A DNA stretch of 36,449 nt, taken from the IMG/VR virus record IMGVR_UViG_3300026270_000555, positions 1 to 36,449 of that record; one strand, written 5' to 3'. Under the pieces are notes generated by a model, which was not told where the DNA came from, made no database searches, and saw only the letters and a program-made list of their open reading frames with translations. Shown here piece by piece: positions 22,501 through 36,449 of the stretch. Source of the DNA: a virus. Taxonomy: Duplodnaviria; Caudoviricetes. Position 1 is the first letter of the stretch; every line of letters starts with the position of its first letter. Position numbers and translations under genes: made by a program.

Positions 22501-23137
22501 TAAATTGTTTGACTGCGGTGTTGTTACCACCGCCACCTCCTGATGATTCTGCAAATGTTAACGCACCAGATCCGTCTGTCTGTAGCACCTGTCCATTGCT
22601 TCCATCTGCTGTTGGAAGTGTATAAGCACCGTTGACATTAATTGTTCCTGTTGTTTGTACCCCGGAAGTGATTGTTTTTAATTTTTCTGAGCCGTAATAA
22701 TATAATTTTAGTTCACCTGTAGAACCGTCCGCTTTAAGATAATTTGCTAATCCTCCACTACCATCATCTGATCCTATTATAACATCACTGTTGTCAGCAT
22801 AAGTTCTGATGTTTATGTCACCGGTTGTTTCGTTAATGTTTAAATTAGTTCCAGTGTGTTTGATATTTGCATCTGCATCGGTACCTAATCTTAATTCGAT
22901 ACTGTCATTAAATTTTATGTTATCAGTGGCTGTGCCTCCAGCAATAGAAGTTGCTGTGAGTGTGGTTGTTGTAAGATTTCCGCTGACTGTTAATGTTGAT
23001 GAAGGTTCTGAAGTACCAATTCCTACTCGTGAGTTTGTTACATCTAGGTATAACAAGTTAGTTTCAAATGCAAGGTCAGTGCCATTTCTAGTCAGATTGG
23101 ACTTTAGTACCGACCCTGATATACGACCTATGGCCAT
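19523..23137 (-). CDS. Large virion structural protein (1204 aa; baseplate/fibre-like) with six internal ~95-aa repeats
   Basis: N-terminal MAIGRISG..L.SNL.R module shared with paralogues; repeats of D.F....(Y)R.A.Y...E...HDGT; S/T/G-rich. Confidence 0.75.
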   Translation of the reverse strand: MAIGRISGSVLKSNLTRNGTDLAFETNLLYLDVTNSRVGIGTSEPSSTLTVSGNLTTTTLTATSIAGGTATDNIKFNDSIELRLGTDADANIKHTGTNLNINETTGDINIRTYADNSDVIIGSDDGSGGLANYLKADGSTGELKLYYYGSEKLKTITSGVQTTGTINVNGAYTLPTADGSNGQVLQTDGSGALTFAESSGGGGGNNTAVKQFNYYKLNQTSAVIDEFDIKEYRGAIYDVGVEDKDNNFTGHYKVSIVHDDSTPYISVYNVNEDSTRIVDFTAAISGDSVQLSAETNTSSHTNLRVYRIALGDHHETVANTNSKIIATSTSISSSATTLDQFTKTDIRGAKYVILIKDDTAGDYQISELSLTHDGTTVFHDQYALVSSRGTPLHSFSAAISGATVTLSSASGGNTTGTAILYRQDLGTKTKLGEFDNFHYGIKKDIDSAVETVDSFDVFKYKSARYFVTMESGSEYQNSEITMTINDAGTDATVSESFVITANNTLATFTADVSNGKARLRASCNPNTKIFFARLGMEAINIYRANGQTSDDLYITHNNLKLEPGALTLPTGTTANRPTASKVGMIRYNTSTESYERYDSSGWTDIATQASVSEASGTSTGEKTSISTSAINVDTFDTSSFDSAFYLMVTRDEINDEIATQTVSLVHNDTAAFTSTGGIVRSGSNTQVAFDADISGSTVRLRGTGTADVNSVKFFRIGLGDNTSASSSGNTATIVNSDVDSAVENLDTWSASSYRGAKYYISANNSGKTELTNIECLVVHNGTDAFITMYNDHFTGNNSLLTLTADIDSGSVRLRASGNEPNTAVKMYRVLLSDSESSASSDNTKTVGQVSVSSSATAIDTFTTDNANGAHYVIVGNSSSESAASISEVFVVTDGTDAYVTTAPQVSSKGSDQLAFTAALSGTTVTLSAASTSGASTTVNGYRVQLLRNQGGASTSLQVLTSNNQTIAGQKTFTAGVLTDTIQSPGSNANITLDPQGTGAVAVLGSQTITNTTTDDSLTITTTEDSNSAGPVISLKRNSSSVADADYLGQIKFKGENDNDQEVNYAKISGKILDASDSSEDGILEFAFMKNGSQNISGRFRSDSLQLLNDTSLRVTGHVELGVLSGDPSGTSNIAHIYAKDDSASAEVYVRDEAGNVTKISPHNEKGEWEYFSRNTKTGKTVRVNMEEMIKDIEKLTGKKYIQDC

Positions 23138-23219
23138 ATTAGGTACCTCTCTATAATAATGTTAGTGTAGCATATGCCACACACAGCCTCGTTTCATTGC
23201 CGGCTGACAGCAGTACTAG

Positions 23220-34496: not shown

Positions 34497-34919
34497 TTAT
34501 CTAACGTCGATGTTCGCTTTACCAGAATCTTGACCTTCGTCAGTTCCTTCTGCTTTTAGCGTGTATGGTTTGCTACCTGTAGCACCACCTGCCGTTACAT
34601 AGTGTACTGTGTTGTTGTAGAATTTCTCAACGTATGCAACTGTTGAGTCGTCTAATATAACTTGTACACAAAACTGGTTAGACGTGTTTTGTAATGAACC
34701 TGGAGCAACTGCTTTCAATTCATATACTGCTTCAGATGAGTCTTCCAAGTGTATTTTGAATAACTTAGATCCTCTTTGTGAAACAATGTAAGCAGTAGTT
34801 GAATCAACTTTAGCACCACCTGATGGTCTGTAAGCCGTTACTGCGATTTTTCCTGAAAGGTTGCCACCGAAGTCATTTGCTCCGCTAACAAGTTTGTCTT
34901 TTCTTATTGGTCTTCCCAT
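34497..34919 (-). CDS. Phage protein (140 aa), probable abundant virion (decoration-type) protein
   Basis: MGRPIRK...YIVSQRGSK.F; own late promoter, strong AAGGAG RBS and terminator; close to the capsid gene. Function is inferred. Confidence 0.65.
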   Translation of the reverse strand: MGRPIRKDKLVSGANDFGGNLSGKIAVTAYRPSGGAKVDSTTAYIVSQRGSKLFKIHLEDSSEAVYELKAVAPGSLQNTSNQFCVQVILDDSTVAYVEKFYNNTVHYVTAGGATGSKPYTLKAEGTDEGQDSGKANIDVR

Positions 34920-34926
34920 TTTTTTT

Positions 34927-35017
34927 CTCCTTTAAAGGAGTCCAATCCTAGTTCTCCTAGGTACGCGGTTGGTATATCCGCATAAGTCTTCTACATTGGT
35001 AGAAGCACGTTTGAACT
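34927..35017 (-). ncRNA. Candidate structured 5' leader RNA (four-way junction plus RBS hairpin)
   Basis: Stems AGUUCAA/UUGGACU, CUUCUAC/GUAGAAG, UAUGCGG/CCGCGUA and CCUAG/CUAGG; begins 5 nt after TAAATA (35023-35028). Confidence 0.6.
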
Positions 35018-35057
35018 ATCAGTATTTATTATTTTTTGCGATGTTTAATGTGTGTAT

Positions 35058-35129: not shown

Positions 35130-35363
35130 TTATTTTCTGTTGTAGATATGATATAAAATCCAAACTGCTACCAACCCAATCAGACCTTGATCTGAAAAGC
35201 CTTGCAGTACGCCCTGGACGTTTCCTATTACAGAAACATTTGGCCAGAACGGAATACCTTGACCGTTGAAAAGGATTTCTAAAACGATTCCTAACGCAAT
35301 CAATGATACTCCTACGTCAGCAATTCCTTTTGCCCATCCTTTTATCTTGTTAAGATAATCCAT
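35130..35363 (-). CDS. Small two-helix membrane protein (77 aa)
   Basis: Two hydrophobic segments, basic C-terminus, GGGAGG RBS, TAAATA at 35410-35415. Confidence 0.75.
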   Translation of the reverse strand: MDYLNKIKGWAKGIADVGVSLIALGIVLEILFNGQGIPFWPNVSVIGNVQGVLQGFSDQGLIGLVAVWILYHIYNRK

Positions 35364-35566: not shown

Positions 35567-36449
35567 TTATTTGAATTTTAAGTTTCCTGATGTTACAGCA
35601 ACTTTTCCAACGTAGTCAGCCGCGTTACCAAGTGATGATGCAGTGTTTGTTAACTCTACATAACCGTATCTTGTTAAGAAGCCTACTACTGGTTCGAAAG
35701 TAGCCGGATCAAGAACAACACCTGAAGACATTAAAGGTATGTATGGGCAGTAGAATGCCGGAGCATCTGCCTCACTTGCACCTTTGTAACCTACAAGTAC
35801 GTCTGTGTCGTCTGCCGCGTAAGCGTCAACGTATACTCTCATAGCACCGTTTAAAGTTCCAACGAATTTAGTGTTAGTTGGAGACTCAAAAGTACCTTCT
35901 GTTGATCTTGCAAACGCAGAAGTTGTTGCTGATTGAAGAATAGTTAAAGCAGTTGGAGAAACTACCGCGTAGTTTCCAGCGCCTCTTCTTGTTCTTGTAG
36001 CAATCTGGTTAGCAACTCTGTTGATTAACACAGCCAAAGCCGCGTGTTCATCACCAACGAATGTTGCAGTACCTGATACAGCCGCTTGGTCAAAAGTTTC
36101 AGAAGCAGTTCCTGCCAATGTTCTTAATGATCCAATGATCTCTTGGTCGATCTCAGCAGTAATCTCTTGTGCTAATGCCGCCATGATTTCTGCTTCAACG
36201 TCTATACCTTGTTGTGCTTGAGCATCTTGAGCCGCTTCAAAAGTCCATCTAGCACTTAATTTTCTAGATTTCGCTTCAACCGGTTGTTTCAAGATCTGGA
36301 TTGATAATCTTTTTCCAGGTTCACCTTCTAAAGCCGCTGTTGAAGACGCCTTTGGAGTAGTGTTGTTCTGGTTACCAGAATATGCTTTCGCAATTTTGAA
36401 TGGAGATAATGCTTCTTCACCTGCAGTCGTGTTTGACGCAACTGTGTCT
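35567..36449 (-). CDS. gp23: Major capsid protein (gp23-like), 5' part outside the window
   Basis: VEAKSRKLSARWT.E.AQD, EITAEID.E, TRRGAGN, AFYCPYIPL, FEPVVGFLTRYG motifs. The frame stays open past the ORF-track start (…LEGEPGKRLSIQILKQ) to the window edge. Confidence 0.96.
   Translation of the reverse strand, partial: DTVASNTTAGEEALSPFKIAKAYSGNQNNTTPKASSTAALEGEPGKRLSIQILKQPVEAKSRKLSARWTFEAAQDAQAQQGIDVEAEIMAALAQEITAEIDQEIIGSLRTLAGTASETFDQAAVSGTATFVGDEHAALAVLINRVANQIATRTRRGAGNYAVVSPTALTILQSATTSAFARSTEGTFESPTNTKFVGTLNGAMRVYVDAYAADDTDVLVGYKGASEADAPAFYCPYIPLMSSGVVLDPATFEPVVGFLTRYGYVELTNTASSLGNAADYVGKVAVTSGNLKFK

Follow-up and report, generated by a model that had tools for sequence, protein, structure and literature searches.

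The scaffolding protein of phage P22 limits its own synthesis, an autoregulation that is not known to involve a conserved multi-helix RNA. In T4, as described in PMC3014915, gp32 and gp43 are translational repressors of their own mRNAs, acting on structures in the leaders, and the genes e, soc, 49 and I-TevI carry hairpins that sequester the ribosome-binding site (RBS): a stem beside a late promoter, whose element is TATAAATA, conceals the Shine-Dalgarno sequence (SD). The gp32 and gp43 operators, a pseudoknot or one hairpin, serve replication proteins for which nucleic-acid binding is the main job. The leader described here also lies next to a late-promoter-like site and holds its SD in a stem, but it is a multi-helix RNA that precedes the gene of a probable virion protein, and its binding by that protein is putative.

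The window, that is, the whole stretch of 36,449 nucleotides analysed, is part of a T4-related myovirus with gp23, terminase, sheath and gp15. Its gp23 has its best cultured match (76%) in the jumbo Sinorhizobium phage Phosso, and 13 of the 14 sequencing runs that hold at least half of the words of the stretch are labelled marine or seawater. The features referred to below are the following:

35567..36448, minus strand: T4-like major capsid protein gp23 (PF07068, E 2.8e-82), its 5' end cut by the window
35130..35363, minus strand: 77-aa hydrophobic ORF, the upstream neighbour, with its own TAAATA and SD
35023..35028, minus strand: TAAATA, late-promoter-like -10 element, its putative function taken from the T4 element
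35011..35017, minus strand: 5' element AGUUCAA, the 5' strand of P1, beyond the Rfam model; nearly all relatives retain its GU(C/U)
34917..35005, minus strand: freshwater-2 RNA (RF02980), Rfam covariance-model match over the whole model
34988..35005, minus strand: P2 hairpin, variable in length and sequence
34962..34984, minus strand: P3 hairpin UAUGCGG/CCGCGUA, the most conserved helix, with a 9-nt loop here
34947..34961, minus strand: P4 hairpin with the 7-nt loop GGAGAAC, of putative T-loop-like spacing
34939..34945, minus strand: 3' strand of P1, UUGGACU, present only in tail-bearing subtypes
34927..34940, minus strand: anti-SD hairpin CUCCU/AGGAG, which holds the SD (34932-34927); a subtype feature
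34497..34919, minus strand: 140-aa MGRP gene, with 1059 homologues and a predicted all-beta fold
4047, 5737, 8026, 10246, 31712 and 34432, minus strand, and 31776, plus strand: TAAATA-near starts without evident SD

The only Rfam match in the window is freshwater-2 (RF02980, type Cis-reg) at 34917-35005(-), with 72.1 bits against a gathering score of 49.9, an E value of 2.7e-9 and model positions 1-84 of 84 covered. In the alignment CUUAUGCGG/CCGCGUA and the AGAAC loop fall in three hairpins, followed by the SD and the AUG, and no broken pair is marked. The preliminary description had recognised no known family, a claim of novelty that by its own terms yields to a match with an existing Rfam family; hence the RNA is an additional copy of a catalogued family of unassigned function and not a new one. 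The three hairpins of the model are P2, P3 and P4 and it has the same UUGGA...AAGGAG...AUG tail, but it starts at P2, draws that tail unpaired and has no place in its structure for the 5' GU element, P1, the anti-SD hairpin or the promoter. Its cut-off is missed by many true relatives (for example L003 with 44.3 and L082 with 38.3 bits). The motif presumably originates from a survey of 224 motifs (PMC5737381). The word freshwater-2 was found neither in the main text of that paper nor in six supplements of PMC10690425 and two of PMC12510878. Within this coverage, to which the supplement that describes the motif and three further PMC10690425 files may add, no paper was found that assigns freshwater-2 a function or a phage context.

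The sequences named in the preliminary description were all found on the minus strand at the positions that it gave, including the palindrome at 34940-34927 that shares CU (2 nt) with P1, and the named structure begins, as had been claimed, just past the late-promoter-like TAAATA, after a gap of 5 nt. The 79-nt piece folds exactly into the four-way junction that had been drawn (z -4.83; 0/200 shuffles as low). The whole leader region also folds better than its shuffled controls (z -4.36), and the transcribed strand does so more clearly than the opposite strand (z -4.55 vs -2.44). The structure is under selection and constitutes a real RNA fold. To obtain the linkers of 0-2 nt ascribed to the junction, P2 must be lengthened by GU/AC across a bulged G, which is its form in the predicted minimum-energy fold; with the stems as originally named they measure 5, 3, 0 and 1 nt. 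In the same predicted fold, calculated for nested folding only, a 6-bp P1 and a 4-bp RBS hairpin coexist, and the predicted cost is 2.2 kcal/mol to free the SD and 0.9 to lose P1. The proposal that P1 and the RBS hairpin are coupled as a switch was rejected, since both helices are present together in the predicted fold of the window and the hairpin occurs, by pattern, in 0/113 leaders of the subtypes B, C and D defined below. The arrangement recalls the T4 genes e, soc, 49 and I-TevI, in which, however, the late start lies inside the hairpin and frees the SD; in the window TAAATA precedes both arms, and a choice among promoters therefore cannot open the hairpin.

Conservation was studied in 172 unique leaders, anchored on TAAATA and the MGR start, of which 168 were parsed; the four left out, from three cultured phages and L242, have no RNA. 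P3 is paired at all seven positions in 167/167 leaders (one bulged variant skipped). Its pair 6 is compensatory (GC 152, UA 10, AU 5) and pairs 1, 2, 4 and 7 are invariant in 167/167, with pairs 1-4 partly fixed by the parser. What is kept in P3 is the letters as well as the pairing, which fits recognition by a partner. The two loop-closing pairs of P4 are paired in 168/168, with four and five pair types. In a 34-row alignment of tail-bearing leaders two-sided changes affect six of the seven pairs of P2, two of P3, four of P4 and none of P1, and the anti-SD hairpin shows one one-sided change only, these counts being of sequences and not of events and six A2 rows after L016 being misaligned at P1. 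The covariation that had been proposed as a check on homologous leaders is therefore found in P2, P3 and P4, and P1 and the RBS hairpin are without clear compensatory change.

The 3' tail sets the subtypes (A 47, A2 8, B 12, C 100 and D 1; n=168). Type A, to which the window belongs by likeness, has P1 and CUCCU/AGGAG in 47/47, with a variable hairpin loop and no two-sided change in P1. Type A2 has the anti-SD hairpin in 6/8 and keeps P1 partly, with one A-U to G-C change in four. Type B presents a different closing helix, CAGAGC/GCUCUG, in 12/12 and A-rich P3 loops, and type C has no tail, no 3' strand of P1 and no hairpin. P2 is missing in a few short leaders, short forms being L082, L194, L195 and L239. 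The four-way junction does not hold as the architecture of the family, because the 3' strand of P1 is missing in 100/168 leaders and shows no two-sided change in the 47 of type A. Judged by the distribution of the 3' tails among subtypes, the junction and the RBS hairpin are features of this lineage, and the family core consists of the 5' GU, the base of P2, P3 and P4. Two further helices were considered and rejected: a replacement P1 in tail-less leaders, whose best helix averages 2.82 against 2.76 +/- 0.05 for permuted pairs (n=95), and a pseudoknot of 5'-GUUC with GAAC of the P4 loop, which fits types A and B but not most type C leaders, since these start with GUC(A/U/G). A quick protein tree with 132 rows interleaves the subtypes, which change 21 times where four changes would be the minimum. 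In L003 and L005 compared with the window, and in L268 compared with L270, proteins that are about 89-90% identical follow leaders of different subtypes, which suggests exchange of leaders between phages.

TAAATA stands 4-6 nt before the conserved GU in 158/168 leaders. It also occurs within 130 nt upstream of 15 of the 31 window ORFs checked, and on the strength of this placement and of the T4 element it may be read as a late promoter. Among the 15 TAAATA-to-ATG leaders of the window the freshwater-2 leader is the longest (103 nt), and nine have 13 nt or less; in many window genes the ATG lies 5-13 nt after TAAATA with no evident SD, and near-leaderless late mRNAs would result. Four metatranscriptome assemblies contain pieces of the region, and one contig, that of a related strain, spans 34906-35018; contigs cannot fix start, strand or level, and the beginning of this one at 35018 is a weak hint only. 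As to other RNAs and neighbours, the 77-aa ORF belongs to no Pfam or PHROG family found, is present in 69 of 78 close loci and is covered by RNA-library contigs of relatives. At 23135-23219(-) an 82-nt GC-richer leader with two hairpins precedes a 1204-aa gene; it folds no better than shuffles (z -0.76) and has no real Rfam match. Just upstream of the freshwater-2 leader a manA RNA (RF01745) is found in L288 (1130-1339; 55.5 bits, above cut-off), where it follows gp23, and in L080 (1184-1393; 49.6 bits, below it).

In uncultured jumbo phages from aquatic habitats the RNA is strictly associated with one conserved gene, in both directions. A DNA pattern made of P3 only retrieved at least 120 loci from IMG/VR, with about 580 estimated. 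Among the pattern-selected loci listed, 120/120 have TAAATA no more than 60 nt upstream of the P3 core, compared with 3% of background windows; of the 117 that are readable, 116 lead into an MGR[P/S/A] gene, and three others end at a contig edge. Conversely, 160 of the 162 loci selected by protein and provided with upstream DNA carry the RNA core. The RNA keeps a constant place over the initiation region of a single gene family, as expected of an operator. Three complete genomes of 344-365 kb have one clear RNA copy beside one gene copy each, their two further RF02980 matches, of 22-23 bits, being at noise level. Among downstream proteins longer than 100 aa, 99 of 100 link into one family, whose freshwater-2-linked members diverge to about 20% identity; the exception is L128, in which the leader precedes an unrelated gene and a shorter family member lies about 2 kb downstream on the same strand. 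Linkage and covariation together support the earlier proposal of a cis RNA leader to a probable virion gene, one that is conserved and covaries. Four family members (L094, L114, L120 and L130) have 366-416 aa; in L094 and L120 a long insertion precedes the profile matches, which lie deep in the protein, and the gene still follows a freshwater-2 leader.

The 140-aa product is confidently modelled by AlphaFold as all-beta (pLDDT 85). The protein has a basic N-terminus, with a mean of +3 in 12 residues, and is near neutral overall. For the window protein Pfam and PHROG yielded no family of useful significance, the PDB no sequence match, and Foldseek against the PDB no hit at E 0.001. The best hit of the fold search VIA (Z 5.1 over about 50 residues, SH3/KOW/Tudor-like) is weak and is not taken as evidence, and the best Atlas structure match (0.85) is an unnamed protein. 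The BFVD structural neighbours are phage proteins, among them two from Atu_ph07; two weaker matches carry the annotation of possible surface protein. The leader by blastn and the window protein by tblastn gave no match in 50,697 phage records; with the divergent member L092 as query, homologues were recovered from the cultured jumbo phages PA5oct, Atu_ph07 and Phosso at E 3e-9 to 6e-3. The PA5oct homologue PQE65_gp102 is annotated 'structural protein, ESI-MS/MS', and Atu_ph07 gp498 is reported from each of the 13 gel bands of the virion, covered to 75.5% by 23 peptides (PMC6102473). The 140-aa protein is probably a virion protein, for which a surface or decoration role may be proposed. The homologues of the cultured phages start with MGRP, have C-terminal extensions and are preceded by TAAATA and about 30 nt only; in PA5oct, Phosso, Atu_ph07 and Vibrio phage 2.275.O no RF02980 match comes near the cut-off (best 22.3 bits). 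Since MGRP is kept in PA5oct, Phosso, Atu_ph07 and L242, which lack the RNA, the basic arm does not serve the RNA solely. Cellular genomes gave 36 pattern matches, of which four have MGRP context, all on contigs of metagenome-assembled genomes (MAGs). These leader and MGRP gene pairs stand on GTDB MAG contigs labelled Rhizobium, Crocinitomicaceae, Vampirovibrionales and Rickettsiales (L302, L304, L306 and L315), which are probably phage DNA inside bins.

The initiation region differs among subtypes. The SD is predicted to be paired with a probability of 0.89 in type A, 0.11 in type B and 0.22 in type C, and in type B (12/168) no mask of SD or AUG is predicted (0.1 kcal/mol). Type C P3 loops end in ACCCR, and in 79/100 their 4-mer end is complementary to UGGG of AUG-GGA, against 28 +/- 4 when the loops are shuffled; the full match occurs in 0/47 type A and 0/12 type B leaders. 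This pairing cannot covary, as MG is fixed by the protein, and does not explain the GGA, as the next position is A.A in 84/100. Codon 2 is GGA in the genes of 165/168 leaders, a count inflated by related sequences; for comparison, codon 2 ends in A in about 70% of neighbouring genes and GGA amounts to 30% inside the MGRP gene. A nucleotide-level constraint therefore extends into the gene. The spacing published for T-loops is a 7-nt loop with U or G at position 2, a purine at 4, A at 5, a final pyrimidine and two extruded bases (10.1101/2022.12.26.521914), and the P4 loop fits N[UG]NRA-NY in 164/168 leaders, being pyrimidine-first in 101/168. A T-psi-C-type loop had been dismissed at first, but P4 may still carry a T-loop-type motif of the kind seen in the tRNA elbow and in the FMN and cobalamin riboswitches. 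It is a candidate by its sequence spacing, and the window loop, which starts with a G that could pair with position 7, is a weaker fit.

With this information freshwater-2 is tentatively read, at somewhat less than even confidence, as a translational operator of a probable virion gene to which a protein binds, likely the gene's own product. Late transcription would start at about 35017, making the whole leader RNA. P2, P3 and P4 would pack into a compact core, perhaps via the T-loop-type P4 loop, and the initiation region would be weakly masked, in type A by the CUCCU hairpin and in the tail-less subtype possibly by pairing of the P3 loop with UGGG of AUG-GGA. A protein binding the near-invariant P3/P4 core would hold the masked state, the simplest candidate being the unassembled gene product, and synthesis would fall once free subunits exceed the capsid sites. 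P1 would be an optional stabilising add-on and not a switch. The operator is favoured by the RNA's strict linkage to one gene and its single copy, by the conservation of P3 letters and by a start region that is weakly masked in most subtypes, and it is further supported by the two-way linkage across proteins that diverge so widely, by the codon 2 constraint, by the paired SD of type A and by the loop complementarity of type C. The basic N-terminus, the virion detection of Atu_ph07 gp498 and the T4 gp32/gp43 precedent add to this, and autogenous control by the MGRP protein is plausible; as in P22, a morphogenesis protein would limit its own synthesis, but protein and phage are unrelated. Against the operator count type B without a predicted mask and the absence of the loop pairing in types A and B, the dispensability of the RNA in relatives that keep MGRP, the near-neutral protein, the L128 leader before an unrelated gene and the interleaving of subtypes on the protein tree. 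A more elaborate form, in which free subunits of a virion surface protein bind P3/P4 of a tertiary-folded, T-loop-bearing operator and lock the start through a loop-AUG pseudoknot in type C and the anti-SD hairpin in type A, is possible but doubtful.

The same leader could act without any regulation, as a constitutive stabiliser of the 5' end or translation enhancer in which a compact fold at +1 would shield late mRNA from host nucleases ahead of a strong SD and raise the yield of a high-copy virion protein. This explanation, conceivable though on balance not expected, accounts well for a fold that begins at the predicted start site in the longest of the late leaders, for an SD predicted to be mostly open in types B and C, for subtypes that swap among close relatives and an RNA that can be lost, and for a homologue abundant in virions. 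It accounts poorly for type A, which keeps CUCCU opposite AGGAG in 47/47 despite a variable loop and would thereby lower initiation, and the invariant letters of P3 and the GGA of codon 2 exceed the needs of a barrier, unless they serve a tertiary fold.

The near-invariance of the RNA core in front of a protein that falls to about 20% identity counts against binding by the gene product itself, and a constant outside partner fits it at least as well. Such a partner could come from the phage, as another late protein, or from the host, as an RNA-binding protein or an RNA, and the position of L128 before another gene agrees with it, as do the T-loop-like P4 loop and the exposed ACCCR loop, which are typical contact surfaces. 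Yet complete genomes have one clear copy, at this gene only, where more sites would be expected for a general regulator, and we consider a separate partner unlikely. A riboswitch that tunes virion composition to the state of the host through a small molecule is more improbable still. A compact core of several helices, with its joining and loop letters conserved, would suit an aptamer, and glutamine aptamers (RF01739; cut-off 35 bits) do stand in the same region of the related phages L123 (981-1028, 50.4 bits) and L194 (62-115, 49 bits), just upstream of the freshwater-2 leader, directly (6-7 nt) after a TAAATA or TAAATA-like site and before basic ORFs of 32-33 aa; but no expression platform is common to the subtypes, P1 and the anti-SD hairpin fold together and are not mutually exclusive, the target is a structural gene, and no riboswitch family matches the stretch. 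A processed or packaged stand-alone RNA, a tRNA mimic or decoy as had also been suggested, has tRNA-like size and, in the window subtype, a 7-bp P1 beside a 4-5 bp arm with a 7-nt T-loop-like loop in its favour, but it is the least credible, since the leader is, as first stated, no tRNA (ARAGORN 0 genes, no Rfam tRNA match), the P3 loop, of 9 nt in the window, is very variable in length elsewhere, the acceptor-like closing stem is absent in 100/168 and followed by CCU and not CCA, and the RNA is always joined directly to an SD and ATG.

The value of the finding lies in the phage and gene context that it gives to freshwater-2 and in the leads that can be tested. The Rfam model could be improved by adding the 5' GU and the promoter spacing, with P1 and the anti-SD hairpin as subtype features. 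Because the RNA is tied to one late gene family that has RNA-less homologues in cultured phages, a candidate ligand can be named, and the motif becomes testable with a 100-nt RNA and a 140-aa protein. If the more elaborate operator reading is true, an orphan Rfam motif would gain a function and a structured operator would be added for a virion component.
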